DNA of 64,000 nucleotides from Candidatus Magasanikiibacteriota bacterium (GTDB lineage: Bacteria; Patescibacteriota; Patescibacteriia; Magasanikbacterales; UBA922), in contig JBAQFA010000009.1 in NCBI GenBank assembly GCA_049287025.1, positions 24,802-88,801 on the forward strand. The letters run 5' to 3'. Each line of letters begins with the position of its first letter. Positions within the stretch are counted from its first letter, which is position 1. Under the pieces are notes generated by a model. It saw only the letters and a list, made by a program, of their open reading frames with translations, was not told the DNA's origin and searched no databases. The position numbers and the translations under genes were made by a program. This document shows positions 10,123 to 60,541 of the stretch, one piece after another.

Positions 10123-10374
10123 AAAGTAGACAATATTATGCCTATAAAATGTGATTTTGTCAATTTTTTTATCGTTGTATAAGTGATTATTTTTGGCTAA
10201 TATAAGCTATTTTTTATTATTTTTAAGCTCGGGATAACTTTTTTAAAATATTGTTTTGGTTAGCTTTTTTTGGCTGTAGCAAAATTGACTTGTTTTGAAT
10301 TATTATATATAATAATGGCGCATAAAAAAGACGACAGAAAACGTCTTTATAATATTTATTCTTAATTATTTTCT

Positions 10375-12363: not shown

Positions 12364-12413
12364 ACACGGATTATACGGAATTAAAGGATTATACGGAAAA
12401 TAAGAAAAATTAA

Positions 12414-12447
12414 AACACTCTGCTAAATTGGCAGGGTGTTTTTTTTG
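12414..12447 (+). terminator. Intrinsic terminator after hppA
   Basis: The stem acactctgc/gcagggtgt is followed by a T8 run. Confidence 0.7.
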
Positions 12448-12471
12448 TTTAACACTTTTTAAATCGTAAAC

Positions 12472-12500
12472 TTGACTTATCATATAAAATATAGTATAAA
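12472..12500 (+). promoter_or_regulatory. AT-rich promoter driving GC-rich cassette 1
   Basis: TTGACT (12472-12477), a 17-nt spacer, then TATAAA (12495-12500). ACTTGTTGTCTGTCG follows and resembles the CTTGTTCTGACG leader of the other cassettes. Confidence 0.45.
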
Positions 12501-12616
12501 TGTATGTCCGATAGACTTGTTGTCTGTCGTTTTGGTATATAAGGCAACTTTGCTTTGTTGTTGTGTGTGCTTGAGTGAACAACCATAATCCTTGGATGGG
12601 AGGTGAGACAGGGGAA

Positions 12617-13588
12617 ATGGCAAAGGATCTTTCGGAGAGAAAATTTCGAAGCACCGTGCGGTATGTGCGACGTCTATTGGGGGGTGGGACTGGTATTGTG
12701 ACTGCTCAACAGCTTCAGAAGGCTGGAAAACGAGCTCGCGGTCCTTTCTTTGACCCCAGAGACCATGGTCTGGTTCGTCCGTTCTTGGAGCGTGGAGCCG
12801 AAGAAGGACTCTGGGTGCTTGAGAACGGCGGTGGTCGGGCTGTCGTACCTGATGGTGTGTGGGAACAGTGGGATAGTCGTGGCGAGAGACGGCGTGAGGA
12901 ACGTCAGTCACAAGTTACGGCTCAAGCAGGAACCCGGCCAGCTTCAGTGCTGGCATCACTAGAGGAGGTCTCTATGACCGACGGTACGAAGAAGGGGGTG
13001 GGCGTATCCCCGAAAAATCCTATCTGGGTTTGGCTTCGGGCCAAGAAGGGTAGGTTGGGAGAGCTCATCGAGCTGTTCCAGGGGGTCCATGATGGTGCTC
13101 CGGTTCTCGCCAAGAAGGGTGGGGCTTTGAGTTTCCATTTTGCCCGCCCGCACCTAGTTCGGGGCCTGCAGAAGCTCGGGATGGAGCAGATCGACGATGG
13201 GTCAAAGATCCTGGCCACGGTCTTCTCCTACCTCGCCACGCCTGAGCAGGGGGTATTCGAGCGTGTGGGTTCTGGTGGGTACCCCCGCTACAAGCTCGGG
13301 CCGAAAGGGCAGAAGCTCTTGACCGAGGTCAGGAGCAGGGGCTCTGAGCCCATGCCACCGCCCGTTCCGTCCACGTCACCGACCGCTGCCCCCAGCCCGG
13401 GTGACCCGTTCGCCGAGGAGGAGGCCGCTCTCGTGGCCAAGCTCGAGGCGGTCCGTGCCAAACGCCGGCGCTTCATCGTGGTCGAGGACCTCGTGGTCAA
13501 GGCCATGAAGAAGGCCGGCATCGAGGGGACAGAGCAAGTTGAGTTCCTCAAGGCGCTCGTCAAAAAGCTCGGGGGTTCCTCCGAGTAG
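12617..13588 (+). CDS. GC-rich cassette ORF 1, unknown function (ORFan)
   Basis: This is a long ORF in a compositionally foreign block; the 60-nt line starting at 13321 contains 42 G+C. GGGAGGTGA lies upstream of the ATG at 12617, and the GTG at 12575 offered by the ORF track is unlikely. The protein has a Pro-rich linker and a C-terminal helical region. I recognise no family. Confidence 0.6.
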   Translation: MAKDLSERKFRSTVRYVRRLLGGGTGIVTAQQLQKAGKRARGPFFDPRDHGLVRPFLERGAEEGLWVLENGGGRAVVPDGVWEQWDSRGERRREERQSQVTAQAGTRPASVLASLEEVSMTDGTKKGVGVSPKNPIWVWLRAKKGRLGELIELFQGVHDGAPVLAKKGGALSFHFARPHLVRGLQKLGMEQIDDGSKILATVFSYLATPEQGVFERVGSGGYPRYKLGPKGQKLLTEVRSRGSEPMPPPVPSTSPTAAPSPGDPFAEEEAALVAKLEAVRAKRRRFIVVEDLVVKAMKKAGIEGTEQVEFLKALVKKLGGSSE

Positions 13589-13795
13589 TCAAATCTCTAG
13601 GCAGTCTTGACTGCCTACGACATCGTTCTTTCAACCTGTCCCGTTCGGGACACCAAAGTCAGGGAAGTGAGTATCACTCCACATCGGAGCGTACCTTCCC
13701 TGGCGCTCCATCAAAAGAACATCTCTAGTTAGGTGTTTTTTTGTTTAACATTGATTTTACAGATTTTAAAAAAGATTTTATTTTATAAAAATTAT

Positions 13796-14560
13796 TTATT
13801 TCAAACTGTTCCACAACATCTCCCAAACAAGACGTTGGTTATCAGCATTGGCTTGGTCTTCAATAATGACTAGGATCATACTCTCCCAAGAAACAGTCAT
13901 TACTCGATTGCCATAAATAACAGTGTGACTTTTGAATGATTTACCTTCGGGTAAAAATTTTACTTCACGTAATTCTTCTGTGGCACGTCTAGCTTCTAAA
14001 ATACCGGATTTGGATTTTTCCACAATTATTTTTGCTTTAACCCCTAATGAAATTCGTTCGTTGGTTAATTTTTTATACTCTTCTGGAAAAGTTGTTAATA
14101 GTTTTTCTGATGAACCATATACCAAATTTTCTTTTAGATTTACTTTGTGTCTAATCCTGTCTAGATAAGCATTCCATACATTTTTTCTACCCTCAAAATA
14201 TAATACTTTTGGTTTGTTGGCACCTTTGTTTTGTAAAGCCTCAAGTTCTGGTATTAGATCAGCAAAAAGTTGCTCTTTGTAACGAAGTGAATCCAAAAAT
14301 TTTTCTGGTTCCATGGCCACAAAATATCTTTTTCTGCCTTTGTTAACCACATTCATTAAGCCTTTAAGAATTAATTTTTCTATAATGTCGTATGTAGTTA
14401 CTCTATGTATGCCGGCTTTTTGAGCAATTGTCTGGACTGAAGCATGACCAAGCTCTAAGGTGGCTAAGTAAATTTCGGCCTCTTTGGCATCTAGACCAAA
14501 TTGTTGTAATTGATTAGGTAAAATCATAAAATGTTGTAGGAAAAGTTCTACATTTTTCAT
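13796..14560 (-). CDS. TrmB-family winged-helix transcriptional regulator (paralog 1)
   Basis: The N-terminal FGLDAKEAEIYLATLELGHASVQTIAQKAGIHRVTTYDIIEKLILKGL matches the TrmB wHTH pattern. The gene is low-GC. The start may be the internal Met at 14527. Confidence 0.8.
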   Translation of the reverse strand: MKNVELFLQHFMILPNQLQQFGLDAKEAEIYLATLELGHASVQTIAQKAGIHRVTTYDIIEKLILKGLMNVVNKGRKRYFVAMEPEKFLDSLRYKEQLFADLIPELEALQNKGANKPKVLYFEGRKNVWNAYLDRIRHKVNLKENLVYGSSEKLLTTFPEEYKKLTNERISLGVKAKIIVEKSKSGILEARRATEELREVKFLPEGKSFKSHTVIYGNRVMTVSWESMILVIIEDQANADNQRLVWEMLWNSLK

Positions 14561-28373: not shown

Positions 28374-29123
28374 TTATTTTATCTCTGGGCAATGATCCCA
28401 CATAAATTTAAACCAGGTTTTATAGCTAGTGGCCAGTGGACGACTAATATTTACAAAAATGGTAATATCGTCACTAATCTTTGTTATTCCGGCGCCAGTA
28501 AAAGACACAACATGATCACCAAAAATGTCTACCATTGAAGGCGTAGAATATTCTTTAGGTAGGTATTTGTAAGGTTTACCTACGGCTTTTGGTACATGAG
28601 GAGCTTGTTTTAGTACTTCAAAATCAAATAAATGTTTATATTTAATACCTCGACGATCCGCATCAACTAAAAATTTATCCAAAAAGGTATTGAGTCTTGG
28701 GTCGAACCAGGCTCCCTTGGCGCCAATACAATAAACATCTTCTTTAGTAGATAATACATCACGAAGAAAATTTTTAAATCCTTCCAGACCTTTATATATG
28801 TAGGCAGCCTCTAAAACAGGATGTTTTTGGTATTCGTGCATCAAGTGTGGCATTTCTTTTTCTAGCCTAGTACGTTTTTCATCAACCAGTTCCATTAGCT
28901 TGGCTGGTTCCACTGGTTTAAATAAAGTGTCGCCATGCCCAATAACTTGAAACACTAAACCTTTTTCAATTAAGCGATTCATTGAGTCATAAATATTCCG
29001 GCGATGAATTTTACTTTTTTTTGAAATATTAGAAACCGTAGTTTGTTTTTCTTGTAAAAGTGTTTCGTAAATTTTGGCTTCGTTTATTGACAATCCTAGT
29101 TCTGTTAAAATTTGGCTATACAT
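28374..29123 (-). CDS. TrmB-family wHTH transcriptional regulator (paralog 2)
   Basis: The N-terminus is LGLSINEAKIYETLLQEKQTTVSNISKKSKIHRRNIYDSMNRLIEKGLV. The gene is low-GC and divergent from GC-rich cassette 2. Confidence 0.8.
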   Translation of the reverse strand: MYSQILTELGLSINEAKIYETLLQEKQTTVSNISKKSKIHRRNIYDSMNRLIEKGLVFQVIGHGDTLFKPVEPAKLMELVDEKRTRLEKEMPHLMHEYQKHPVLEAAYIYKGLEGFKNFLRDVLSTKEDVYCIGAKGAWFDPRLNTFLDKFLVDADRRGIKYKHLFDFEVLKQAPHVPKAVGKPYKYLPKEYSTPSMVDIFGDHVVSFTGAGITKISDDITIFVNISRPLATSYKTWFKFMWDHCPEIK

Positions 29124-29170
29124 AGCAAAAATATATTAAAGTGGTGTGAAGCCACACCACGTGGTGGTAT

Positions 29171-29198
29171 TTGCCACTCTTTATATATTATATATAAT
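29171..29198 (+). promoter_or_regulatory. Promoter of GC-rich cassette 2
   Basis: TTGCCA (29171-29176), a 16-nt spacer, then TATAAT (29193-29198). GCCTTGTT follows and is the shared start of the leader. Confidence 0.45.
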
Positions 29199-29296
29199 GC
29201 CTTGTTACTTTGCAAGCCGCTGCTGTGCATAAAAGCTAGATGGTGAGCGGGTAATAAGGGGTTCTTTGATAAAACAATTTGAGAAGCGAGGGACAA

Positions 29297-29479
29297 ATGG
29301 AAACTGGAGAAAGGCAAGATGAAGTTACTTGTTTGAAGAAAGAGTTGGAACATGACAAAGATGAGATATATTATTTGCGTTTGGCTATCCTTAATTTGAA
29401 TAGGAAAAAGGAGTATGTCAGAATGCAAAGGATGTTCCGTGGTGGAGAAGCTGTTCTCGACATGTGGGCGCGCTATTAA
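29297..29479 (+). CDS. Small coiled-coil protein, unknown function (cassette 2, first ORF)
   Basis: 60 aa. GAGG lies 5 nt upstream of the ATG at 29297. The sequence is charged with heptad-like spacing. I recognise no family. Confidence 0.4.
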   Translation: METGERQDEVTCLKKELEHDKDEIYYLRLAILNLNRKKEYVRMQRMFRGGEAVLDMWARY

Positions 29480-29515
29480 CACGGGAGAGGGCTGAAAAAG
29501 CCTAAGGAGGACCTC

Positions 29516-30103
29516 ATGCGTACAATGTTAGTCGCGTTGCTGTCGCTGGTGCTGTTTTCAAGTATTGCTCAGGCCGAAACCTACAACACCAGGTTGCTCC
29601 TGCACGGTCACAAGACCGTCGGTGAGGGATTCGGAGTCGCGGGTTGGGTGATTGCGCCCAACATCACAAGCGTACCGAACAAGTGGGTAACCCTCGTCGG
29701 CCCGTGCTACGATGGACAGGGGTGGGGTGTAGAATTGTTGGCAGGAGCGGTTGTTTCTGGTGGCGAGAGCAAGTTTCTTGTAGATGTCAGAATAACGTTC
29801 ACTCCAAAATTCTTCGGCATCCCCTTGAACACCTGGCACAACTTCCAGTGGATTCGAACCGGAGGCTCTGGCACGGGTTACTGGTATGGACAGGTTGACT
29901 GGGTGTTGCCACTCGGACTTGGACTTCTCGGTACAGAAACCGAGAACACGTTCAACGTGAGTGGCAATGACTGGTCAGTCGCGCCTCACGTCGTGATCTC
30001 TTTCGGTGATCACTTCGCGCTAGTGTTCGCTCCACAAGCTCATTTCAATGCACGTGGCTACACTGGCACGCAAGCGTGGGTTCGTACGGTCGTGAGTCAC
30101 TAG
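29516..30103 (+). CDS. GC-rich secreted protein, unknown function (cassette 2)
   Basis: AAGGAGG lies 5 nt upstream of the ATG. The Sec signal peptide is MRTMLVALLSLVLFSSIAQA/ET. The mature part is Gly/Trp/Val-rich with an alternating, beta-like pattern. The 60-nt line starting at 29581 contains 36 G+C. Confidence 0.7.
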   Translation: MRTMLVALLSLVLFSSIAQAETYNTRLLLHGHKTVGEGFGVAGWVIAPNITSVPNKWVTLVGPCYDGQGWGVELLAGAVVSGGESKFLVDVRITFTPKFFGIPLNTWHNFQWIRTGGSGTGYWYGQVDWVLPLGLGLLGTETENTFNVSGNDWSVAPHVVISFGDHFALVFAPQAHFNARGYTGTQAWVRTVVSH

Positions 30104-30177
30104 TCGTTCTTTTATAGGGGGGAGGACTTACTTGAGACTAGTCATCTCACGTGGACCGGCACGTAAAAATCCGGGAT

Positions 30178-30197
30178 TCTAGTTAGTACTAAGTAGA
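30178..30197. repeat. 20-bp near-perfect palindrome TCTAGTTAGTACTAAGTAGA (cassette 3' boundary)
   Basis: The half-sites tctagttag and ctaagtaga match at 8 of 9 positions. An identical copy lies at 31851-31870 and a half-site lies at 13725-13733. A hairpin-and-T-run terminator follows at 30202-30232. Confidence 0.7.
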
Positions 30198-30254
30198 TAT
30201 CAAAAAACCACGCCTCATCGGCGGGTTTTTTGTTTACTTTGGGTAATTTATGAT

Positions 30255-31049
30255 TTATTTTTTCTTTTTGGCAAGTTGAGAGAGTGGTACGGCCGTATTC
30301 CAAGCTAGTTCATATAGCGCTTTTAGAATTTTTACCAAAGATGTACTTTCTATCATTACACCAATTTTGTGTGGTTTATGAGTGACGAAGACAATTTTTG
30401 ATTCAAAAATATTAATTTCACCAAAAAAGTCCTCAATTCCTGGTAGTTGATTAGGTTTAAGCCATTTAATATGAGTATAAGTCATTGATCCTTTATAATT
30501 CGTCATCCAAGTTCTAGCTGTAGGTGTATCCAAAGCAATAATACGTTCATGAATTTTACGTTTACTGCGTTCACGATTATAGCCTTCACCCCAAGTTTTG
30601 AATTCCGGCCAACTCCAGCCTTCAAAATCGGCAATAGAAAGAATTTCGGTTTTTGAATCTAAGCTCTCCCAATAAATATTTTTTAAACCCTGGGTACCTT
30701 CTTGATATTTGATAACTGGCTTTTCGGCAAACTTATAAATCGAAAATAATTTTGGTAAAACTTTTTCTACATTTAATAATTTATCTTCCCATTGCTTTTT
30801 TTTGTTTTTAATATGTTGAACCAGACGCCCTGGATTTTCCGAAGTATAAATCATTTTCGATCCTTTGCCAGTCGCGCGATCTACCAAACCATACCAACCT
30901 AACTTTTCCAAAGCATAATAACCAAGCGTTCGGTTGATACCAGCTTTTTTGGTTATCTCGGCTACAGTAGCAGGACCAAGTTCGAGCAAGGCTAAATATA
31001 CTTTGCCTTCGGTTTCATCTAAACCTAATTGACTGATTAAATCTTTCAT
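30255..31049 (-). CDS. TrmB-family wHTH transcriptional regulator (paralog 3)
   Basis: LGLDETEGKVYLALLELGPATVAEITKKAGINRTLGYYALEKLGWYGLV. It is clearly homologous along its full length to the ORFs 31929..32732 and 48975..49763. Confidence 0.85.
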   Translation of the reverse strand: MKDLISQLGLDETEGKVYLALLELGPATVAEITKKAGINRTLGYYALEKLGWYGLVDRATGKGSKMIYTSENPGRLVQHIKNKKKQWEDKLLNVEKVLPKLFSIYKFAEKPVIKYQEGTQGLKNIYWESLDSKTEILSIADFEGWSWPEFKTWGEGYNRERSKRKIHERIIALDTPTARTWMTNYKGSMTYTHIKWLKPNQLPGIEDFFGEINIFESKIVFVTHKPHKIGVMIESTSLVKILKALYELAWNTAVPLSQLAKKKK

Positions 31050-31164
31050 GTTTTTATTCTACTATATATTTGGAAATGTGTCAAATCTATTTAACAGAAA
31101 ATTATTTATATAGCAAAATACTTTATAATTAGCCAAATATTAATAATTAACTAATAAAACAATA

Positions 31165-31193
31165 TTGACAGTTATTGTAAAATGTGGAATAAT
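31165..31193 (+). promoter_or_regulatory. Promoter of GC-rich cassette 3 with an operator-like palindrome just downstream
   Basis: TTGACA (31165-31170), a 17-nt spacer, then TGgAATAAT (-10 at 31188-31193). GTTCTAGAAT-gaaa-ATTCTGGAAC follows at 31198-31221 with a 9/10 inverted repeat. Confidence 0.55.
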
Positions 31194-31301
31194 AAGTAGT
31201 TCTAGAATGAAAATTCTGGAACCAAATTGATTGGGAGTGTCTGAACACTCTGTATATATGGTCTGGCGTTCTTTACACACGTGCTAGTTGGAGGGAACAT
31301 C

Positions 31302-31727
31302 ATGAAAAGGTGCATCAAGGCTCCGGGAATTAACGCTTTCAGTGGCGAGGGTGAAGTGGGGAAGTTAGAAGATGTCCCCGGAAAACAAGGTTGCCTTCCA
31401 TTTGATCCTAGTCCGGCCGTAGGGGGTTGGATGAAGGACGACAATTGTAAAGTGGAGGCACCACCAGAGGGGTGCACGCTCGAAGTGCCCGAAACGATCC
31501 TATGCCCCAATGGAAAAAACATCCCAGCTGGAAAGTACAAGGTGGGAAAACTGCCTGATGACAAGATTCTGCATCGCTATCATGATCACGTTCTGCCCCT
31601 CACCGATGAGAAGGGGGTCACCCGGCATTATTGCATTGAAAGTTCCGGTAGGCATGTCGACTGGTCGGGATGCGTCTGCATCTTGATTCGTGTGGAGACG
31701 CGCGAAGAGCGACTGCTGATTCAGTAG
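31302..31727 (+). CDS. GC-rich Cys-rich protein, unknown function (cassette 3)
   Basis: GGAGGG lies 6 nt upstream of the ATG at 31302, and the GTG at 31281 from the ORF track is rejected. 141 aa with 8 Cys. I recognise no family. Confidence 0.65.
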   Translation: MKRCIKAPGINAFSGEGEVGKLEDVPGKQGCLPFDPSPAVGGWMKDDNCKVEAPPEGCTLEVPETILCPNGKNIPAGKYKVGKLPDDKILHRYHDHVLPLTDEKGVTRHYCIESSGRHVDWSGCVCILIRVETREERLLIQ

Positions 31728-31792
31728 CCATAAATTAAGGGGGGCAAGACGTAGTCTGGATTCGTCAACCAGTCCACCTGCCGGAGAGGTAG

Positions 31793-31818
31793 GCGTAGGC
31801 CGGCGCGTGAGCTCGGCA
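31793..31818 (+). repeat. Conserved cassette 3' motif GCGTAGGCCGGCGCGTGAGCTCGGCA (REP-like)
   Basis: Near-identical 26-mers occur at 31793-31818, 33336-33361, 34176-34201, 34799-34824 and on the minus strand at 47677-47702. Each lies within 100 nt downstream of a GC-rich ORF stop. Confidence 0.85.
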
Positions 31819-31850
31819 CCGTGCGCCCGACACATTCAAAACGGGCAAAT

Positions 31851-31870
31851 TCTAGTTAGTACTAAGTAGA
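31851..31870. repeat. Second copy of palindrome TCTAGTTAGTACTAAGTAGA + terminator
   Basis: It is identical to 30178-30197. The hairpin aaaaaaccacgc...gcgcggtttttt follows. Confidence 0.7.
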
Positions 31871-31928
31871 TAACAAAAAACCACGCCCTATCAGCGCGGT
31901 TTTTTGTTTGTTTTGAATAATTTATAAA

Positions 31929-32732
31929 TTATTTTTTCTTTTTACTAGTTTTAGCAAGCGGTGTAGCTGTAATCCACGCCAGTTCAAAAATCGCTTTTAA
32001 AATATTAGATAAAGCCGTGCTTTCTATAATTATGCCAATAGGGATTGGTTTCTTGAATAAAGCCATCATTACTTTATTATCATAAATATTAATTTCACCA
32101 CCTAAATCTTTGATAGTTGGTACTTGTTCGGGTTTTATCCAGCGATAATTAATATATTTTTTTGATCCTTGATAATGTTTCATCCAATCTCTTCCTTCGG
32201 GTGTATCTAAAACCAAAACGCGTTCAGAAATTTTTCTTTTACTACGTTCGCGGGTATATTCTTTGCCCCATTTAAAAAGATTAAACTCTGGTGTATACCA
32301 AGCTTGCAAATCCAAGACTGATAAAATTTCTGATTTGGCTTCTAAAGTTTCCCAATAAATATTTTTGGCACCCTCAACACCTTCTTGAAATCTAACGCTG
32401 GGTTTTTCGGCCACGGTATAGAGTAAATAAAAATCTGGCAATTGTGATTCTAATTCTTTTTCTTTTCTTTCCCAAGTATTAATTTTTGATTTTACAAAAT
32501 GTTTTAAATTTTTGGGATCTTTGGCTACAAATTGAATGCGTTTCTTTTGTCCAGAAGAACGATTGACTAGGCCAAACCAACCAAGTTTTTCTAGGGCATG
32601 ATAACAAAGGGTGTGACCAATGCCAGCTTTGCGGGCAATGGCGCTGGCGCCAGAAGGTCCAAGTTGTAAAAGGGCAATATAGACTTTGGCTTCTGTTTCT
32701 TCAAAGCCAATGCTTTTAAGAATTTCTAACAT
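31929..32732 (-). CDS. TrmB-family wHTH transcriptional regulator (paralog 4)
   Basis: IGFEETEAKVYIALLQLGPSGASAIARKAGIGHTLCYHALEKLGWFGLV. The C-terminus LKAIFELAWITATPL...KKKK parallels that of paralog 3. Confidence 0.85.
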   Translation of the reverse strand: MLEILKSIGFEETEAKVYIALLQLGPSGASAIARKAGIGHTLCYHALEKLGWFGLVNRSSGQKKRIQFVAKDPKNLKHFVKSKINTWERKEKELESQLPDFYLLYTVAEKPSVRFQEGVEGAKNIYWETLEAKSEILSVLDLQAWYTPEFNLFKWGKEYTRERSKRKISERVLVLDTPEGRDWMKHYQGSKKYINYRWIKPEQVPTIKDLGGEINIYDNKVMMALFKKPIPIGIIIESTALSNILKAIFELAWITATPLAKTSKKKK

Positions 32733-32875
32733 AGAATTTTATTTTAGAATTTATTAGATATATTTATTATAACACAAAAATAAATTTATTTCAATATCAA
32801 ATTGAAAATAATTACTAGATTGTAAATTTTTATTTAAAATAAGCCAAAAATGGTTTATTTATTTTAAATTGAGTA

Positions 32876-32904
32876 TTGACATACTCCATAATCTAATGCA
32901 TAAT
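32876..32904 (+). promoter_or_regulatory. Promoter of GC-rich cassette 4
   Basis: TTGACA (32876-32881), a 17-nt spacer, then CATAAT (32899-32904). The architecture matches the minus-strand promoter at 48721-48749. Confidence 0.55.
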
Positions 32905-32906
32905 TA

Positions 32907-32946
32907 CTTGTTCTGACGATCGAGGATTGGCCTTGAGAGTTGGACG
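32907..32946 (+). promoter_or_regulatory. Conserved cassette 5' leader (CTTGTTCTGACGATCGAGGAT..CCTTGAGAGTTGGACG)
   Basis: It matches 48718-48679 (minus strand) at 37 of 40 positions and is closely similar to 48294-48258 (minus strand). It contains the hairpin TCGAGG-N5-CCT(C/T)GA. The C-to-T change keeps a G:U pair, and the loops differ. Confidence 0.7.
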
Positions 32947-32963
32947 CTAACTGGGAGGGCATC

Positions 32964-33311
32964 ATGGCCGAAGAGCACGAGGTACGGTGTGATAACTGCG
33001 CCCACCACCACGTAGGAAGCGGGGGTTGTTTCGGCAAAGTAGAGAGCAGGTTCCCCATGTACGATTTTCATAGAGGAGTAAAATACTGCATGTGGGGGGG
33101 GACCCCCAGCCGAATTGTGACCTTTTCTAGATTGAAGGGGTGCCCGCTGGGTGTGGAGTTTGTGCCACTCCGCTGGTGTGGTACCTGTGGCAACTTGGTC
33201 CAAACGGACCAAGGGTGTGCTCACCGGTTGGAGGGTTGCGAGGACCCCAGCTACAGGTGCTGGAAGATTCACCCCGACCTCAAGGAGGGTATGAGACAAC
33301 AGTACCTCTAG
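32964..33311 (+). CDS. GC-rich Cys/His-rich protein, unknown function (cassette 4, ORF a)
   Basis: GGGAGGG lies 4 nt upstream of the ATG at 32964. 115 aa with CDNCAHHH, CGTCG and other Cys pairs that suggest metal binding. I recognise no family. Confidence 0.65.
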   Translation: MAEEHEVRCDNCAHHHVGSGGCFGKVESRFPMYDFHRGVKYCMWGGTPSRIVTFSRLKGCPLGVEFVPLRWCGTCGNLVQTDQGCAHRLEGCEDPSYRCWKIHPDLKEGMRQQYL

Positions 33312-33335
33312 ACTACCCACCTATGGGTTAAACAG

Positions 33336-33447
33336 GCGTAGGCCGACGCGTGAGCTCGGCATTCCATTTTTGTCCAAAATATTATTTTTTGCATAAAGAT
33401 GGAGGCGCTCTTTAAAAACAAACAATCCGCACTGGTGGTGTTGGTTG
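33336..33447 (+). repeat. Inter-cassette junction repeat, copy A (~112 nt)
   Basis: The 3' motif is followed by the AT hairpin ccatttttgtcc...gcataaagatgg (33364-33402). CGCTCTTTAAAAACAAACAA and CACTGGTGGTGTTGGTTG follow that. It aligns along its full length with 34176-34285. Confidence 0.8.
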
Positions 33448-33480
33448 AAGAGATATAGTTCTGACTTAACGGAGGCTAGA

Positions 33481-34149
33481 ATGGGATACGACCCAAACCA
33501 AATGGCCCAAAGGTATTTGAGGGTCGACTGGGCCGACGTGAAGGGCTATGCCGCTTACGCGGTAGAGTCCACGTTCGGGGACCAAGTACCACCACCCATA
33601 AAAAGGAGACTCGAGGTATTGGACGGTATAAGGGACAAGGAAGGTCCCGAAGCCGCCTGTCTCGAGGCAGCAAGGATCGAATGTGAATGCCAAGTCGTTC
33701 AGGAGAAAAGAACTGAACGACGGCAGTGGAGAACGGGAGACGACCCATACAAATATGGGTCTTCGTTCTCTTCGAAGTTTGTCATCATAGATTATAATGG
33801 TGAAAAAAGATTCTACATCGCTCATAATTGGCATATGCAGGCCGTTTTCGTTTTCGCCAAAATTCTGGTGGATAGAAATAAAAAAGTCGATTTTCACGTT
33901 CTGGGTGGGGGGTGGTTCCGTGCTAATCATCCCCTAACTGTTGGCGGTTTTAGCGGTGATTTTAGCTCGTTCAAAATCTCTGACTTGAGTGAGGCGTTGG
34001 GTGGGCTTGAATTCACCGACAAAGATCCCGGTGATTGGCGCACGAATTCCATGCGTGCCACCCATATTGATTGGGCTTTTATCGAAAAAGCCCGTGACTC
34101 CTCTGAGAAATACAGGGAGGTATGGAAACGGATCTTTGAGGAGGAATAA
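33481..34149 (+). CDS. Unknown-function protein (cassette 4, ORF b)
   Basis: AGTTCTGAC (33457-33465) precedes GGAGG, which lies 5 nt upstream of the ATG at 33481. The TTG at 33445 from the ORF track is rejected. 222 aa. I recognise no family. Confidence 0.6.
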   Translation: MGYDPNQMAQRYLRVDWADVKGYAAYAVESTFGDQVPPPIKRRLEVLDGIRDKEGPEAACLEAARIECECQVVQEKRTERRQWRTGDDPYKYGSSFSSKFVIIDYNGEKRFYIAHNWHMQAVFVFAKILVDRNKKVDFHVLGGGWFRANHPLTVGGFSGDFSSFKISDLSEALGGLEFTDKDPGDWRTNSMRATHIDWAFIEKARDSSEKYREVWKRIFEEE

Positions 34150-34175
34150 TAGACGTAATCTGATTTCGTCAATCA

Positions 34176-34285
34176 GCGTAGGCCGGCGCGTTAGCTCGGC
34201 ATTCCATCTTTGTATAAAAATAATTTTATATAAAGATGGTTGTCGCTCTTTAAAAACAAACAACTAACACTGGTGGTGTTGGTTG
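34176..34285 (+). repeat. Inter-cassette junction repeat, copy B (~110 nt)
   Basis: See copy A. The hairpin ccatctttgtat...atataaagatgg lies at 34204-34239. Confidence 0.8.
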
Positions 34286-34339
34286 GTGATATATAAAAAG
34301 GACTGGTGGCGGACACAACCCTTGGAGAAGGAGTTGAAA

Positions 34340-34759
34340 ATGAGTACTGTCAAGATACTCATCATCGACGACGGTGATGAGAAAGTCGATCGACTGAAAG
34401 GTTATGATCGACTTGGCCACCTCCATGGTGTGGAGGTGGTACGCCGATGGAATTTTAATTCGGCTCTTAAGGAAGGGCCGTACGCGTTTAATGATTTGGA
34501 GCAAACAAAGTTTGACGTGATTATTTTGGACTTTACACTGCCAATGGACAGATTCGGTCATGAGATCTTGGATAAAATTAGACACAGTCCCAGGTTTATT
34601 ATTAACGAAAGAACGGTAGTAATTGGCATTTCCACAGAGTGGAAACGTCTATTACAATATGATTTCGGTTTGAATCTTGCGATCTACAAGGAGGAAACGA
34701 TGGCTGACGAACTGGAAACAGCCATCAAGTCCTTCGTCGCCACTGGCAAAGTCAAATAA
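34340..34759 (+). CDS. Stand-alone CheY-like receiver (REC) domain protein (cassette 4, ORF c)
   Basis: AAGGAG lies 6 nt upstream of the ATG at 34340. KILIIDDG, the putative phospho-acceptor in DVIILDFTLP, and VVIGIST fit a receiver fold. There is no output domain, and no kinase lies in the window. Confidence 0.65.
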   Translation: MSTVKILIIDDGDEKVDRLKGYDRLGHLHGVEVVRRWNFNSALKEGPYAFNDLEQTKFDVIILDFTLPMDRFGHEILDKIRHSPRFIINERTVVIGISTEWKRLLQYDFGLNLAIYKEETMADELETAIKSFVATGKVK

Positions 34760-34798
34760 TTTGGGGAGGGAAAGACGAAGCTTGGGATTTGTCACCCA

Positions 34799-34824
34799 AC
34801 GTAGGCCGGCGCGTGAGCTCGGCA
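34799..34824 (+). repeat. Cassette 3' motif copy (ACGTAGGCCGGCGCGTGAGCTCGGCA), end of the array
   Basis: It matches the 26-mer consensus at 25 of 26 positions. It is preceded by AGACGAAGCTTGGGATTTGTCACCCA, which resembles the sequence preceding the copies at 31793 and 34176. Confidence 0.8.
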
Positions 34825-34959
34825 ATCTCCTTTTTCGCGAAAGAAAGAGCAAAAAAGATCCAGTAAAACTGGGCTTTTTTGTTTGTGGATAAAATAGTTG
34901 ACAATGTGTCTAATATCGTGTATAGTATATAATATATTATAAACTATATACTATAAACT

Positions 34960-35484: not shown

Positions 35485-35799
35485 ATGAGCATTGTTTTTC
35501 TTGATGATGATGTGGAAAATTTTATTTATAGTCTAGAAAATAAAACAAAAGCTAAGGTTTTGCGAACGTTGGATTTGCTAGAAGAGTTTGGTTATAATCT
35601 GGGCATGCCACATACAAAAAAGATTAAAAATAATCTTTTTGAATTGAGAGTATTGGGTAGAAATCAGGTGCGATTATTTTATACATTTTTAAAACCAAAT
35701 ATAATTGTTTTGTGTGGCTTTAGAAAGAAGACTCAGAAAATTCCTAGTCATGAATTGGAGAAAGCCCTGCATAAATTAAAGTTGCTTGACAAGATATAA
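35485..35799 (+). CDS. HigB/Gp49-like (RelE/ParE superfamily) toxin
   Basis: 104 aa. The pattern ...LEEFGYNLGMPHTKKIKNNLFELRV...VRLFYTF...IIVLCGFRKKTQKIP is typical of phage Gp49/HigB-type toxins. The antitoxin gene follows immediately. Confidence 0.7.
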   Translation: MSIVFLDDDVENFIYSLENKTKAKVLRTLDLLEEFGYNLGMPHTKKIKNNLFELRVLGRNQVRLFYTFLKPNIIVLCGFRKKTQKIPSHELEKALHKLKLLDKI

Positions 35800-35822
35800 C
35801 ATATATGTTATATTATAAATGT

Positions 35823-36095
35823 ATGAAAAATTACAATAAAATTAAATCAGAAATATTAAAAGACCCTAAGTTCAAAAAAGTCTATGACGATCTTGAGCCA
35901 GAATTTGAATTGGCTCGGCAAATTATTAAAAAGCGTTTGGAATTAGGTTGGTCTCAGTCAGAATTGGCTAGAAAAATGGGTACCAAGCAGTCGGCTATTG
36001 CCAGGTTGGAGTCTGGCGGATATAATCCAAGTATGGCTTTTTTGCAAAAAACAGTTAAGGCATTAAAGGCCGATTTACAGATAATTATTAGTTAA
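35823..36095 (+). CDS. XRE-family HTH antitoxin (HigA-like)
   Basis: The HTH is LGWSQSELARKMGTKQSAIARLESG. I chose the start ATG at 35823 (MKNYNK...). Confidence 0.7.
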   Translation: MKNYNKIKSEILKDPKFKKVYDDLEPEFELARQIIKKRLELGWSQSELARKMGTKQSAIARLESGGYNPSMAFLQKTVKALKADLQIIIS

Positions 36096-47476: not shown

Positions 47477-47676
47477 TTTTTGGTTTGATGACTGTTTACG
47501 TACTAATTACGAAACTTACGAATCTACGAAACTACCATTGTTAAATTGCCACATTGTTAAATTGTTAATGATACACACAGAAGAAAGTCTGTTAATGTAA
47601 ATTTTACGGAAATTAAACAAAAAATCCCTTCCTAAATGGTTGGGATTTTTTTGTCTCGTTTGTCGACAAGTCGAGA

Positions 47677-47702
47677 TGCCGAGCTCACGCGCCGGCCTAC
47701 GC
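47677..47702 (-). repeat. Cassette 3' motif copy (minus strand)
   Basis: The reverse complement GCGTAGGCCGGCGCGTGAGCTCGGCA is an exact match to the copy at 31793. On the minus strand it is followed by the terminator hairpin atccc...gggat and a T-run (about 47615-47652). Confidence 0.85.
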
Positions 47703-47784
47703 CTATTTAATCCATAGATGGAGTGCCACTTTTGAATGTGTGTGGCGCACAGTGAAGAGGTGTGGAACAAGCCGGCCATGTTTA

Positions 47785-48228
47785 TCAGATTTTGAATTCC
47801 TGATAAATCCTGGCCAGCACCTTTGCAGCCGTATGAACTCGTTCCAGGATGTTCGTGAGTGCGTCGGAGAATTCGTGCCACTCCCAGACAGTCTCTTCCC
47901 CGTCACTTTTCAGGTTGTAGCTACCCATCATGGCGGCAAACACTTGGTAGGCGTTAACGCTTCGGCCTGTTTTTTCCCCACGCAGTATACTGCCGTGTAT
48001 GTGTTGCGCGTAGTTTTCAAGCCACTCAACCAAATCTTCGTTCCCCTCTATTTTCTGTAGAAGCTGGTCTGCGATTTGATCAACGCTTTCCTTACAACAC
48101 TCTTCATCTGCGTCAAGTCGTAAGTACAGGCAAACGATGGCGATCAGATTGGGTGGAAGGTCATAGCATCCCTCAGGATAAGTCCTGAGCATAGGCTCGC
48201 CTTCTCCCCAGCTAGAAAGGTAGAGCAT
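47785..48228 (-). CDS. Unknown-function acidic helical protein (cassette 5, ORF b)
   Basis: AGGAGG lies 6 nt upstream of the ATG at 48228. 147 aa. I recognise no family. Confidence 0.6.
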   Translation of the reverse strand: MLYLSSWGEGEPMLRTYPEGCYDLPPNLIAIVCLYLRLDADEECCKESVDQIADQLLQKIEGNEDLVEWLENYAQHIHGSILRGEKTGRSVNAYQVFAAMMGSYNLKSDGEETVWEWHEFSDALTNILERVHTAAKVLARIYQEFKI

Positions 48229-48257
48229 CACTCACCTCCTTGTTTACAAAGAACGTT

Positions 48258-48294
48258 GTCCAACTTTCGAGGTACATCCTCGATTGTCAGAACT
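48258..48294 (-). promoter_or_regulatory. Conserved cassette 5' leader copy (AGTTCTGACAATCGAGGATGTACCTCGAAAGTTGGACA)
   Basis: This is the third copy of the leader, at an internal (intercistronic) position. The hairpin is TCGAGG-atgta-CCTCGA. Confidence 0.7.
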
Positions 48295-48385
48295 TCCTCC
48301 ATCTTTATACAAAAAATATTTTGGACAAAGATGGAAGGCCCGGCGCTTTGTTGACGCGCGGCCGGGCGAAGCGTGGCGGAGTGTG
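48295..48385 (-). repeat. Inter-cassette junction, short version
   Basis: On the minus strand, the GC hairpin gcccggc...gccgggc occupies the place of the 3' motif. The AT hairpin ccatctttgtccaaaatattttttgtataaagatgg (48334-48299) follows and is nearly identical to 33364-33402. It then runs straight into AGTTCTGAC. Confidence 0.7.
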
Positions 48386-48652
48386 TTACTCCTTGGGTGT
48401 GGAGAGGTGGAGAAAGTGGCGGATTTTTTGCCAGAAGATTTTGTTGGCTTCTATTCCGGCTTCCTTTTTCGCTCGAGCCTCCCTGATGCCCTTGTTCCTT
48501 TCGAGGCCACACTGGGGGCAGTAGGACATGTGAGGTAAGAGTTCATTTCCACACAGGCATTGTGGAAGAGCAACTCTCTTTACACCACAATATTGACAGA
48601 ACTCTGAGTATCCCACGTGACTACACATCGGGCACAGCCTACTCTCAAGCAT
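48386..48652 (-). CDS. Double zinc-ribbon protein (cassette 5, ORF a)
   Basis: GGAGG lies 5 nt upstream of the ATG at 48652, and the TTG at 48685 from the ORF track would fall inside the conserved leader. CPMCSH...CQYCG and CLCG...CPQCG form two Cys4 ribbons. The C-terminal tail is basic. Confidence 0.65.
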   Translation of the reverse strand: MLESRLCPMCSHVGYSEFCQYCGVKRVALPQCLCGNELLPHMSYCPQCGLERNKGIREARAKKEAGIEANKIFWQKIRHFLHLSTPKE

Positions 48653-48678
48653 TTCTTCCTCCAGAGTGTAAGGAATTT

Positions 48679-48718
48679 CGTCCAACTTTCGAGGCCCATC
48701 CTCGATCGTCAGAACAAG
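48679..48718 (-). promoter_or_regulatory. Conserved cassette 5' leader copy
   Basis: The reverse complement is CTTGTTCTGACGATCGAGGATGGGCCTCGAAAGTTGGACG. Confidence 0.7.
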
Positions 48719-48720
48719 GA

Positions 48721-48749
48721 ATTGTAGATTATTTATGAGTAATTGTCAA
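48721..48749 (-). promoter_or_regulatory. Promoter of GC-rich cassette 5
   Basis: The reverse complement reads TTGACA (48749-48744), a 17-nt spacer, then TACAAT (48726-48721). TAAGTAGTTC at 48753-48762 also occurs at 31193-31202. Confidence 0.55.
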
Positions 48750-48974
48750 GATTAAGTAGTTCAAAAATGTATATAAAATAGGCTAAAATAAGCTAAATAA
48801 TTATTAACACATATAATTTTGTCGGGATGATTTGACATATATTGTTATATATGTTATATTAGTTATGGTTTAAAACATTATTTTGTTTGCTAAAGTGGTT
48901 AATTGTAGGAAAGATTCACCCTTCGGGTATCTTCGACCTCTCCGCCAGTCGGCGGATCGGAATGAACTAAAAAA

Positions 48975-49763
48975 ATGGAAAAAAATAATTTAGAAAAATT
49001 AATAGATTTGGGTCTACAAGAAAATGAAGCCAAAATATATTTGGCTTTGTTGGAATTGGGAAAAGGCAATGTGACCGAAATTAGTCGGCGCGCAGGATTG
49101 AACCGGACGACGGGTTATGATATTTTGGAACGTCTTGGTTTACATGGTATGGTGAACCGCGCCAGAGTGGGTAGTAAAAAAATTATTTATGTGGCCGAAC
49201 CGCCATCACATTTGCGTCAGTACTTGGAAGACAAAAAACGCGCCATGGAAAGACGGATGGAAGAATTAAATGATTTGTTGCCAGATTTGCAATCACTTTA
49301 TAAAACTGATATTAAACCAGTTATAAAATTTGCCGAAGGGAAAAGTGAAATGCAAAAATTGTATTTGAATGTTTTGGATGCGAAGAGTGAAGTTTATTCA
49401 ATTCTTAATTTAAAAGGTTATGCCGAAGTTTTTGATGAACTGGGTGCTTATCAATCCAAAGAACGACATAAAAAAGGCATAAAAGAAAAAGTTTTGGCTA
49501 TAAAAAATGATACCGCTCTGTGGTGGTATAATAAAACTTATAAAAATAAAACTGCCAAGGATAAAAAGTTAACCGAATATCGCTGGCTAGAAGATGCGGA
49601 AAAGTATTCTACCGCCGGAGAAGTAAATATTTTTGATGATAAAGTAATTGGTGTATTATCCAAACCAAGTGAAAATGTGGCATTTGAAATTCAATCACAG
49701 ACATTTGCGGATTTTTTGAAATTAGTTTTTGAAATGGCGTGGAAGAATAGTGAACAAAAATAA
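48975..49763 (+). CDS. TrmB-family wHTH transcriptional regulator (paralog 5)
   Basis: LGLQENEAKIYLALLELGKGNVTEISRRAGLNRTTGYDILERLGLHGMV. It is homologous to paralogs 3 and 4 and divergent from cassette 5. Confidence 0.85.
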   Translation: MEKNNLEKLIDLGLQENEAKIYLALLELGKGNVTEISRRAGLNRTTGYDILERLGLHGMVNRARVGSKKIIYVAEPPSHLRQYLEDKKRAMERRMEELNDLLPDLQSLYKTDIKPVIKFAEGKSEMQKLYLNVLDAKSEVYSILNLKGYAEVFDELGAYQSKERHKKGIKEKVLAIKNDTALWWYNKTYKNKTAKDKKLTEYRWLEDAEKYSTAGEVNIFDDKVIGVLSKPSENVAFEIQSQTFADFLKLVFEMAWKNSEQK

Positions 49764-49908: not shown

Positions 49909-52900
49909 ATGAAATATAAAATGCCTGTCCGCAATGTATTTCGCATTTTAGCGAATAAAGGCGGGTCTGTCATAATATCCATATTTTTTGTTATGGGTAT
50001 TTTTTTAATTATCAATTTAGCACGATCGGAAAATACTGATATTGTGATAAATGAAATTTGCCCCACCGGTTGTGCCGTGTCTGGTCACCAGTGGATTGAA
50101 ATATATAATAAAGGGGATGTTGCGGTTGATTTGAGTGGTTGGAAATTTTGGGAAGGAGAAACAAACCATGGATTAGATATTTCATCATCTAGTTTGGAAC
50201 AAGATTTTTTAATTGAACCAGGAGAATATGCCATTATTGCCCAAAATGATTTGTATTTTTTTGAGGATCATCCAGATGTTACATCCACTATATTTGATAG
50301 TTCGTGGGGAACATTGAATAAGGGTGGGGAATTGATTGGAATGAAAGATAATAATGGTGATTTGTTAGAAGAATTTATATATAAAGCAATTAATAATTTT
50401 TCTTTAGAAAGAAAAGATGCTAATGAATTAATTACAGATGAAAATAATTGGCTAGAACATCCAGATAGTAATTCTGTGGGCCAAGTAAATTATTGGAGTG
50501 GGTACACGGATGACACAGGACACGGAGATACGGAAGATGAGGAGGACACGGAAGATGATGGAGATACAGAGGGCGATGATGAAACAACGACATCTACTCC
50601 ACCCATTGCCACTTCAACTGATGCGGTTTTAGTTATAAATGAATTTGTCAGTGATCCAGATGAAGGACAAAATGAGTGGATTGAATTATATAATATTGGC
50701 ACTTCTACTATTGATTTGGATGGTTGGACATTGTCTGATGGAGTTGGAGTGATATCTTCACCAACTGGTACGATTGATGCTAATGGATTTTTTGTGATTG
50801 AATTATCTTCAACCAAACTAAATAATTCTGGAGATATTATAATTTTAAAAAATTTAAATGAAGAAACAGTTGATCAGGTGTGTTTTGGTAATTGGATTGA
50901 AGGTTGTTTACCCGAAGCGACCAGTGCTCCAGACAAAGGCAATTCTATTGCTAGAATTGTTGACGGCGGGGATACAAATAATGATAAAAATGATTGGCAA
51001 GAAACAACTACGCTGACAAAGGGTTTAATTAATATAATTACTGCACCAGTGGTCAATCCACCGCCATCGGGTGGTGGTGGCGGAGGAGGTGGAACAGAAA
51101 TTGTTTATTATAATGCCGGGGAAATTATTATTAATGAAATTAATTCTGATCCAGGCGATGGTGAAGATGAATTTGTTGAATTGTATAATAAAACTAGTGA
51201 TAGTATTAGTTTGGACAATTGGTGGCTAGAAGATGGGAGCGAAACCAAAACAAAATTAAGTGGCAGTATTAATGCTCGTGGTTTTTTTGTAATAGAAAAA
51301 CCGAGTGGCAATCTAAACAATGCTGGAGATTTGTTAGCCTTATTTTCTCCAGATGGTAAAGAAATTGACAAAGTATCTTATGGTACATGGGATGATGGTA
51401 ATATAAATGATAACGCCCCAGCCCCAGAAGATCCATTAAGTCTAGTGCGTAAAGTGGATGGTCAGGATTCGGATAATGATTACTATGATTTTGTTTTAAC
51501 TTCATCTATTACCAAAGGCAAGAGTAATAAAATTTCTGCCGTGTTGGAAGATGGAGAAATTTTGGAACAAATAATTGGTTCTAGTAAAATTATTCTTAAT
51601 GAAATTTTTCCCAATCCAAAAGCGAGTGACAATGATGAAGAATTTATTGAATTAAAAAATATTGGAGAAGAAACAGTGAATCTAAAAGATTGGCAATTGA
51701 GTGATTCAACCGCTAGAAAATATAAAATTACCCAAGGCAGTATTCCGGCTGGTGGTTATATAGTTTTTAAACGCATTATGACGGGTATTGCTCTTAATAA
51801 TACTGGCGGGGAAGAAATAAAATTATTTTTACCTAGTGGTAGTTTGGTTGATAGTGTAAAATATTCTGGTAGTGCAGATGATAATATTTCTTATGCGCAA
51901 CTGGAAGATGGTGGTTGGAAATGGACTACAAAATTAACTCCAGGCAAGGATAATATTATTGAAGGTAAAGCAGCTTTGCCAATAATTTCGATTGATGTAG
52001 ATACAGAAGTGGCTGTAGGTGAGTCAGTGGTTTTTGATGCGTCAGACACGACTGATCCAGATGGTGAGAAGATGACTTTTGTTTGGAATTTTGGTGATGG
52101 CGAAGACGATACTGGTGATGTGGTGGAACATAGTTTTAATACCGAGGGAGTCTATACTGTAATTTTAAATGTGACAAATAAAAATGGAGCAATAGCAGAA
52201 AAGAAAATAATTATTACGGTAAAAAATAAATTAAGTTTTGTGGGTGGTTATTATCAAGCTGATGATGTAAGTAAGATTGAAATTTCAGAAATTTTACCCA
52301 ATCCTATAGGCAGTGATACTACGGAATTTGTTGAATTGTATAATCCGACTGATAAGGATATTGATTTGGGTGGAATAAAAATTGATGATGAAGAAGGTGG
52401 TTCACGTGCTTATACTATTCCAGATAAGACAATTATTCCTGCCGGTGTTTATCTAGTATTCGGTCGACAAGATACAAAACTAGCCTTGAATAATACGAGT
52501 GATTCAGTTCGTTTATTATATCCAGATGGGACAATTTTTAAAGAAGTAAGATTTGATGATGTGTCTGAAGGGGCAAGTTATATCCAAGATGAGAATGATA
52601 GTTGGCAATGGACAAGCGCAATTACTCCTGGTGAAGAAAATATTGATACTTTGGTAGTGGAAAAGGCAACTACTAGAACACTGAGTAAATCAAAAGGAAT
52701 AAAACCAATAATTAATACCACTTTGGAAAAATTGCGCGATGAAGATATTGGTGACAAAGTAAGAGTGACTGGGGTCGTGGCTGTAGAACCAGGAGTTTTG
52801 GCTTCACAGTATTTTTACATTGTCGGTTCACCAGGCGTACAGGTGTATATGTACAAAAAAGATTTCCCTGATTTAAAAGTGGGAGATAGGATTGAAATTA

Positions 52901-60497: not shown

Positions 60498-60541
60498 TTA
60501 AAGTTATAAAGTTGAAAGTTTTAAAGTTCAAAAAAATAACT

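Follow-up and report, generated by a model that had tools for sequence, protein, structure and literature searches.

The window analysed here, a 64,000-nucleotide (nt) stretch of contig JBAQFA010000009.1 from an AT-rich Candidatus Magasanikbacteria/Magasanikiibacteriota host, is ordinary chromosome near the origin and encodes DnaA, DnaN, RecA, FtsK, PolA, PBP1, glucose-6-phosphate dehydrogenase (G6PD) and RmuC. Set into it are short arrays of ORFan genes (28374-34900, 47600-49763 and 12490-14560, with a counterpart at 7250-12850 of the related contig L025), and behind most, though not all, of these genes stands a GC-rich 26-mer, GCGTAGGCCGGCGCGTGAGCTCGGCA, which is the subject of this report. 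An array comprises a TrmB-family regulator in divergent orientation, a promoter of host type, a 5'-terminal hairpin, the ORFan genes themselves, a set of 3' modules and a terminator. The five TrmB-family paralogues (31929-32732 on the minus strand, divergent from a three-cassette array; 28374-29123, 30255-31049 and 13796-14560, also minus; and 48975-49763 on the plus strand) have a host-like composition, and each faces a predicted sigma-70-type promoter that serves one to three open reading frames (ORFs). The GC content at third codon positions (GC3) of these cassette ORFs is 0.49-0.68, as against 0.25-0.30 both in host genes and in the TrmB regulators. The array site, bounded by G6PD/tRNA genes on one side and rmuC on the other, lies in the same place in the window and in the related Magasanikbacteria UBA11710.

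A pattern search allowing up to 3 mismatches recovered exactly five sites for the 26-mer in the window, each with zero or one mismatch; these are the five listed in a preliminary description of the sequence, and 100 dinucleotide-preserving shuffles gave no match (chance expectation 0). All five are on the coding strand, behind GC-rich ORFs with a strong Shine-Dalgarno sequence, and sit between the stop codon and either an intrinsic terminator or the next cistron; the gaps from the stop codon, for copies 1 to 5, are 65, 24, 26, 39 and 82 nt, so that the 20-90 nt first reported is borne out by a measured range of 24-82 nt. Copy 1 (31793-31818, plus strand) follows ORF 31302-31727 and comprises the linker CGUAG at 31794-31798, a bulged hairpin at 31799-31817 and a closing A. 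Two copies occupy internal cassette junctions, namely copy 2 (33336-33361, plus; stem GCCGA/UCGGC), which follows the Cys-rich ORF 32964-33311, and copy 3 (34176-34201, plus; loop GUUA), which follows ORF 33481-34149. Copy 4 (34799-34824, plus) stands behind the CheY-like ORF 34340-34759 of the last cassette and is succeeded by a further hairpin, D, and a terminator (~34859-34880); copy 5 (47677-47702, minus), which follows the minus-strand ORF 47785-48228, likewise has hairpin D and then a terminator behind it. In this sense three of the window's five copies are terminal, having a terminator next and neither a further cassette nor a boxA sequence behind them. In terminal cassettes the intrinsic terminator lies 35-60 nt beyond the 26-mer hairpin, with hairpin D and a CAAAAAA tract standing before the terminators. 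From one copy to its neighbour the distance is 623-1543 nt; such pairs are direct repeats, and no inverted dimers occur.

The element was initially held to mark every cassette ORF, which goes too far: the window has eight GC-rich cassette ORFs, and the 26-mer follows five of them, a variant hairpin follows one and two (12617-13588 and 29516-30103) have neither, other 3' modules being present behind both. The variant (48338-48367, minus, after ORF 48386-48652) is the different GC hairpin already recorded at 48.3 kb; built as GCCCGGC, a bulged C, GC...GC and GCCGGGC around an 11-nt loop, it shares with the 26-mer the layout of stem, bulged C and GC/GC and lacks the GTAG head. With a covariance model of the hairpin, neither the window nor the loci of more distant TrmB homologues yielded further copies, divergent ones included.

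Three mundane identities for the 26-mer were considered and rejected. It is not overlooked coding sequence, a caveat raised at the outset, as there is no consistent frame and the open frames that cross it are short (<300 nt) and different for each copy. It resembles an intrinsic terminator in being a GC-rich hairpin downstream of a stop codon, but there is no U-tract after the stem (the bases that follow are AUUCCAU, AAUCUCC, ACCGUGC or AUCUCGA), a terminator scan does not call it, canonical terminators stand separately downstream, and it is also found between genes predicted to be co-transcribed. Finally, it was dismissed as an operator for the TrmB regulator, the promoter regions containing no similar repeat.

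The 26-mer opens with (G/A)-CGUAG, continues into a hairpin and closes with A. Five base pairs (GCCGR/YCGGC), a bulged C and two further pairs (GC/GC) make up the stem of this hairpin, which is capped by a GUNA tetraloop, and RNAfold predicts the fold (((((.((....))))))) for every copy; the imperfect palindrome itself is 19 nt long, and the element from GTAG through the end of the stem measures 23 nt. Among ten distinct hairpins, pairing is kept in 100% of the cells of the alignment, one pair flipping from G-C to C-G and the innermost pair being G·U, A-U or G-C. All helices, those of the hairpin as well as those of the module lying 5' of it, covary over ~12 copies from the window and related Magasanikbacteria contigs; the unpaired bases (CGUAG, the bulged C, the loop G, U and A, and the 3' A) are invariant, and this holds in the most distant copies, those of contigs L006 and L017. 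The structure is also strand specific: in the copies examined, positions that depart from Watson-Crick pairing and still pair are always G·U in the sense strand, where the antisense has an A·C mismatch, and the sense strand folds better than the antisense by 1.5-7 kcal/mol. A search of Rfam 15 at the gathering threshold matched only tRNAs, and at E-values up to 5 the region 31100-34950 gave nothing other than terminator-like chance matches, with none over the motif and no ribozymes. The 26-mer is best described as a new structured motif, a variant resembling the repetitive extragenic palindromic (REP) elements, with a narrow phylogenetic range.

It is one of several untranslated-region (UTR) modules whose order varies from one occurrence to the next. 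Immediately 5' of CGUAG comes either module A, an H-type pseudoknot (e.g., GACG-uaau-CUGG-auu-CGUC-aa-CCAG), or module B, a 5-bp hairpin. The AGACG..CTGGATT.GTCA segment that the preliminary description had seen before three copies is real and proves to be module A. The first of these pseudoknots (31748-31772, plus; GACG-uagu-CUGG-auu-CGUC-aa-CCAG) is separated from the 26-mer by an extra hairpin (31777-31793), whereas the second (34152-34176, plus; S2 CUGA/UCAG), which starts 2 nt past the stop codon, and the third (34774-34799, plus; S1 GACG/UGUC with a G·U pair, S2 UUGGG/CCCAA) abut it; a fourth (30125-30149, plus; GACU/AGUC and UGAGA/UCUCA) follows ORF 29516-30103, in a cassette without the 26-mer. 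Helix S1 covaries as GACG/CGUC, GACU/AGUC, GAUG/CAUC and GACG/UGUC, and helix S2 as CUGG/CCAG, CUGA/UCAG, CAGG/CCUG, UUGGG/CCCAA and UGAGA/UCUCA. When pseudoknot and hairpin are aligned together over five sequences, 98.7% of the cells are paired and 6 of the 15 pairs change on both sides, a result reached by none of 500 shuffles; the two alignments of flanking helices contain one non-standard cell each. The pseudoknot is called from covariation at homologous positions only, a loose descriptor being too permissive (88 matches against ~63 in shuffles). Module B has a GGGUUAA loop and compensatory changes in three of its five pairs; both window copies (33320-33336, plus, CCUAU-GGGUUAA-ACAGG; 47702-47718, minus, UCUAU-GGAUUAA-AUAGG) abut the 26-mer. 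An alternative module B stem, CCCA/UGGG, was discarded, its 5' arm being deleted in contig L012. Nearly all copies of module A are also preceded, 2-4 nt upstream, by a Shine-Dalgarno-like purine run (GGAGG or GGGGGG) that has no start codon behind it (31740-31745, 34140-34146, 34764-34771 and 30113-30121, with equivalents in L001, L002 and L033); this run might hold a 30S subunit in the manner of STAB-SD elements or pair with CUCC behind the 26-mer.

The distribution of the 26-mer is narrow. It occurs on one contig (3 copies at one locus) among 185,579 GTDB representative genomes and on ~6 distinct AT-rich metagenome contigs with a single pattern match each. Further copies are confined to AT-rich contigs of the same locus type (L001/L025, from UBA11710, with three copies; L002/L008; L006/L009; L012/L029; L017; and L033, with three copies), and GC-rich metagenome matches to a degenerate pattern were dismissed as chance, lying as they do inside long ORFs. 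In more distant relatives, ORFs of raised GC3 still accompany TrmB genes next to rmuC and the 26-mer is absent, which on this comparison makes it a clade-restricted module of a wider phenomenon. Within the clade, the orthologous units of the window and UBA11710 are 92% identical over the 26-mer and 84% over module B, as against 60% over the ORF and 61% over the promoter region. The 26-mer also recurs behind unrelated ORFs and in the distant contigs L006 and L017, where the flanks otherwise share nothing. In the L017 copy (4872-4896, minus), the most distant one, the upstream ORF takes its stop codon from the TAG of CGTAG, and a terminator comes directly behind the hairpin; that locus, too, has a divergent TrmB-like regulator.

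The cassette ORFs appear from comparison with relatives to be real genes, because the Cys-rich ORF 32964-33311 has a counterpart in the metagenome-assembled genome of UBA11710, the protein being 48% identical with its cysteines conserved. Against Pfam, PHROGs, PADLOC and NCBIfam, the cassette proteins gave at most weak CheY-like or zinc-ribbon matches. A word-indexed search of 5.8 billion protein clusters found no match for ORF 32964-33311 and nothing but itself for ORF 33481-34149, and the 323-amino-acid (aa) product of ORF 12617-13588 has three homologue clusters among 1.84 billion representatives. Owing to this near-absence of homologues, no donor lineage could be named. A scan of IMG/VR with the motif and the conserved leader described below returned nothing relevant and thus no evidence of phage origin.

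Other modules of the arrays provide supporting context, in that they too seem to behave as RNA: hairpins C and E covary or retain G·U pairs, and 5'-terminal hairpins are placed at predicted transcription starts. Hairpin C (GCCCG-acacauucaaaa-CGGGC) lies 3' of the 26-mer at 31825-31846 (plus), and its minus-strand copy at 47725-47746, with the covarying stem GCCAC-acacauucaaaa-GUGGC, lies 5' of module B and the 26-mer. Hairpin E is long and AT-rich, has conserved G·U pairs and stands immediately 3' of the motif at internal junctions. At the first of these it occupies 33362-33405 (plus) and is followed by boxA-like GCTCTTTAAAA at 33407-33417 and then a GU-rich tract; at the second, hairpin and boxA-like sequence together span 34202-34255 (plus; 34202-34240 and 34245-34255, respectively); a further hairpin E lies at 48299-48341 (minus), at the D1/D2 junction. 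A weak sigma-70-like promoter score is obtained (33356-33385 and 34196-34224) when TCGGCA, with which the motif ends, is paired with an AT-rich hexamer lying 17-18 nt further on, inside hairpin E; this match could be an internal promoter of the next cassette. A conserved leader runs from the predicted transcription start at 32910-32963 (plus), where a two-tier 5'-terminal hairpin (GUUCUGAC..CGAGG-loop-CCUYG..GUUGGAC) is followed by a Shine-Dalgarno sequence, and a leader of the same type heads the minus-strand array (48653-48715). Stable hairpins are predicted within 0-2 nt of every cassette transcript start (31200-31222, 32910-32946, 48715-48680 on the minus strand and 12507-12529), an arrangement that protects mRNAs from 5'-end-dependent decay.

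Taking these findings together, we propose, with a probability that we would put at roughly one half, that the 26-mer is a transcribed, protein-recognised element of the 3' UTR or intercistronic region, which acts like REPs in their RNA role, as an mRNA stabiliser or as punctuation. It would form the core of a sense-strand RNA element, one module in a shuffled UTR set that frames compositionally foreign ORFan genes. Its hairpin might protect and insulate the upstream cistron from 3'-to-5' decay and, at internal junctions, insulate it from processing at the adjacent long hairpin E. As the unpaired bases are invariant, a specific RNA-binding protein probably reads it. The covariation with sense-strand G·U pairs and the flanking pseudoknot are what favour such an RNA-level role over that of a substrate for a REP-associated tyrosine transposase (RAYT).

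Several points weigh against this proposal. Given the intrinsic terminator 35-60 nt downstream in terminal cassettes, the primary 3' end is apparently not formed at the hairpin, and if the hairpin were simply a barrier to exonucleases, there would be no call for its loop and linker bases to be invariant. The canonical motif is missing behind three of the eight cassette ORFs and cannot, then, be essential for cassette expression. The covariation is drawn from ~12 related sequences of a narrow clade, and a folded single-stranded DNA site such as attC or a REP would also covary, be strand specific and tolerate G·T. Lastly, no candidate binding protein for the 26-mer was identified.

The alternative that fares best, although we regard it as unlikely, places the function in DNA: the hairpin would fold in single-stranded DNA, like attC or the ends of REPs and IS200/IS605 elements, and a recombinase would insert and excise cassettes there, thereby defining their ends. 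A site defining the cassette ends had been suggested in the preliminary description, and one half of that suggestion stands, as cassette content does change exactly at the 3' edge of the motif. In the window, ORFs 33481-34149 and 34340-34759 are extra relative to UBA11710 and lie exactly between the motif of ORF 32964-33311 and its hairpin D and terminator, which are adjacent in UBA11710; in contig L033 a different small gene has been added after the motif of the ORF 31302-31727 homologue. Compared with UBA11710, units B and C have changed places and there are differences in cassette content, with promoter homology ending at the transcription start and resuming at the 3' modules. It is the joining of extra cassettes always at this very edge that leaves room for a DNA-level role. 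Such breakpoints are, however, weak evidence, since homology must end at the sole sequence common to the units.

The parallels with integrons extend further. As with attC sites, a structured, strand-specific repeat is found at the 3' end of small, mostly ORFan genes of foreign composition, which are arranged in one orientation behind a common promoter and vary in content among close relatives at the repeat; further, the GTAG head and bulged stem are the features recognised by TnpA(REP) (PMC8266576). Against this, no IntI was found, and the arrays are headed instead by TrmB-family regulators; the repeat is 26 nt long here as opposed to 57-141 nt in attC; and the arrays are very short (1-3 genes), with several per genome, each having its own TrmB-family regulator, leader and terminator. 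By inspection, the inter-cassette regions 33312-33480, 34150-34339 and 48229-48385 contain no paired inverted core sites R'' (RYYYAAC) and R' (GTTRRRY), and we accordingly rejected the 26-mer as an attC-type site. The other half of the earlier suggestion finds no enzyme to match: there is no Y1/HUH transposase (PF01797) among all window ORFs of at least 100 aa or the called genes of the related loci, no tyrosine recombinase or integrase in the window or those called genes, and no other recombinase adjoining any array in the window or ~15 related loci. The sole recombinase in the window is of the large serine type and lies at 58.8 kb, 11 kb from the array, by tRNA genes. An RNA is also the better fit to the pseudoknot alongside, to the frequent G·U pairs of the sense strand and to the fixed place upstream of terminators. 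The serine recombinase itself (58805-60442; Resolvase, Recombinase and zinc-ribbon domains) adjoins a tRNA-Pro/Phe/Ala cluster (tRNA genes 60423-60698) and probably marks where an integrated element ends; nothing was found to link it with the cassette arrays.

A more speculative possibility, to which we give only a small chance, unites the two roles. The 26-mer would then be the junction element of an undescribed gene-cassette platform of Patescibacteria located by rmuC, whose REP- or attC-like hairpin captures and shuffles GC-rich ORFans and doubles as RNA punctuation. Several short arrays would share a chromosomal hot-spot, each with its own TrmB-family regulator, 5'-hairpin/boxA-like leader and terminator, and a recombinase of an unrecognised type, or one encoded elsewhere, would exchange the cassettes.

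We find it improbable that the 26-mer is part of a nut-like signal, i.e., that its hairpin serves as a boxB or put element which, along with boxA, recruits to RNA polymerase either Nus factors or a dedicated protein, allowing read-through into the next GC-rich cassette and resistance to Rho. The resemblance to the nut sites (boxA and boxB) of phage lambda and rrn operons lies in a small hairpin with a GNRA-like loop near a boxA consensus, followed by a GU-rich tract, at the internal junctions of a multi-gene transcript. Phage boxB hairpins resemble the 26-mer in having a 2-bp upper stem with a GNRA-like loop, GUGA in the present case. The boxA consensus GYTCTTTAANA (PMC5725501) has exact matches at 33407-33417 and 34245-34255 in the window and at 4303-4313 (minus) in L006. 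Both internal junctions thus run from the motif through hairpin E and an exact boxA (33407 and 34245; 46 and 44 nt after the 26-mer, with gaps of 45 and 43 nt) to the GU-rich tract CACTGGTGGTGTTGGTTG, which is the order of rrn leaders. In addition, boxA-like GTTCTTTA(A/C)CA precedes the Shine-Dalgarno sequence in first-cassette leaders (31268-31279; 48254-48243, minus; also in L001 and L006), and the boxA-like sites of leaders and spacers suggest, on sequence grounds, Nus-factor or Rho antitermination of the foreign genes. Yet two exact boxA matches per 64 kb are not significant alone, at least two being present in 21 of 100 shuffles, and the two spacers that bear them are duplicates of each other. 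Several copies have a GUUA or GUCA loop, which is not GNRA; a long hairpin intervenes between the motif and boxA; and no N-like protein is known. The three terminal copies in the window have no boxA behind them and no later cassette to be read into. A nut-like role fits the internal copies and not the terminal ones.

There is a slim chance that the 26-mer is a passive repeat, a short conserved block without function of its own that was spread by recent duplication or gene conversion among cassette units. The copies within the genome are indeed nearly identical, whole units from regulator to terminator are clearly paralogous, and the motif is dispensable for three cassette ORFs. Between genomes, however, it is better conserved than the adjoining ORF and promoter, its stem substitutions are compensatory while its unpaired bases are invariant, and it turns up behind unrelated ORFs and, in L006 and L017, amid flanks that are otherwise unshared.

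The likeness to REPs deserves closer comparison. The GTAG-3 (Escherichia coli-type) REPs have a GTAG head, a stem starting with GCCGG, an irregularity, an inner GC/GC mini-stem and a short loop (PMC3733652; PMC8266576); they are transcribed, often with G-T pairs, lie immediately 3' of ORFs, where they can supply a TAG stop, and are believed to work at the RNA level (PMC3733652). TnpA(REP) recognises the GTAG head and the bulged stem (PMC8266576). The 26-mer matches this description in form and in its 3' UTR location, as first proposed: its GTAG head is unpaired and invariant in all ~12 distinct copies, it is a GC-rich imperfect palindrome that starts with GCCGG and has a bulge, an inner GC/GC mini-stem and a 4-nt loop, it lies just downstream of ORFs between genes of the same direction, its stem has G-T pairs, and it supplies the TAG stop in L017. 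Its presumed role in the transcript is also that of GTAG-3 REPs (PMC3733652; PMC8266576). REP palindromes are imperfect and measure 20-40 nt, those of group 2 having an irregular or bulged stem, and the 26-mer, at 23 nt from GTAG to the stem end and with its bulged C, falls within this description. Where the comparison fails is in copy number, dispersal, inverted dimers and the transposase. REPs are dispersed in tens to hundreds per genome, whereas the 26-mer has five copies per 64 kb, all inside TrmB/cassette arrays. REPs often form inverted dimers or bacterial interspersed mosaic elements in both orientations, whereas the 26-mer is always a singleton in the sense orientation, and a pseudoknot or a second hairpin always accompanies it on the 5' side. 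A RAYT (Y1/HUH, PF01797) is typically flanked by REPs, and none was found in the window or related loci. The host, moreover, is an AT-rich Patescibacteria (candidate phyla radiation, CPR) genome. That the 26-mer is a canonical REP, a non-autonomous element multiplied or processed by RAYT/TnpA(REP), is thus very improbable in spite of its GTAG-headed, GCCGG-initiated bulged palindrome of 23 nt: the copies are few and not dispersed (one GTDB contig and a handful of metagenome contigs), they form no head-to-head or tail-to-tail dimers, and Y1 transposases are absent from the window and the related loci. We conclude that the element is not a member of the RAYT-mobilised REP family.

We see equally little prospect for a self-cleaving ribozyme, or a site for a dedicated endonuclease, that cuts polycistronic RNA into single-cassette units; a compact pseudoknot and hairpin with invariant unpaired nucleotides do recur between cistrons, but no Rfam ribozyme matched even at E-values up to 5, and a catalytic core would not tolerate the interchange of pseudoknot, hairpin and spacing hairpin at the 5' module. 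A pistol-like ribozyme was discarded, the string UUAAAUAG alone being held in common and Rfam lending no support.

A few features of the surroundings may be recorded. Directly 3' of the array and upstream of rmuC, at 35485-36095, lie a Gp49-like (RelE/HigB-type) toxin paired with an HTH_3 antitoxin and a DUF4325/helix-turn-helix (HTH) gene, a neighbourhood that looks like a variable or defence-type island. A protein of 1186 aa (49909-53469) combines five lamin-tail domains, a PKD domain and an OB-fold, and the DNA repeat families D3, D6 and D8 returned by our repeat search are internal domain repeats of it. In the related contig L029 (4930-5235, equivalent to L008 2480-2790), a GC-rich segment of ~300 nt between tRNA genes has a promoter-like TTGACA box before it and a terminator-like T-run at its end; with no long ORF and no Rfam match, the segment may represent a so far undescribed non-coding RNA, or else a cassette that has degenerated.

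CPR/Patescibacteria have small, AT-rich genomes, and little is understood of how they regulate their genes. In the present case, covarying RNA structures frame genes of foreign composition (GC3 ~0.6 versus 0.27) that are essentially without homologues among billions of proteins, and the context of TrmB-headed ORFan arrays framed by shuffled RNA modules is unusual enough to be worth following. If the 26-mer is a genuine RNA stabiliser or protein-binding site, it would constitute a new structured RNA motif and offer a handle on how acquired genes are expressed and insulated; if it is instead a recombination site, it would reveal a system that captures genes in the manner of integrons and dispenses with an integron integrase. 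Either way, a look-alike of REPs that has the GTAG head and lacks RAYT-type spread bears on whether it is the transposase or an RNA-level function that dictates the form of REPs.

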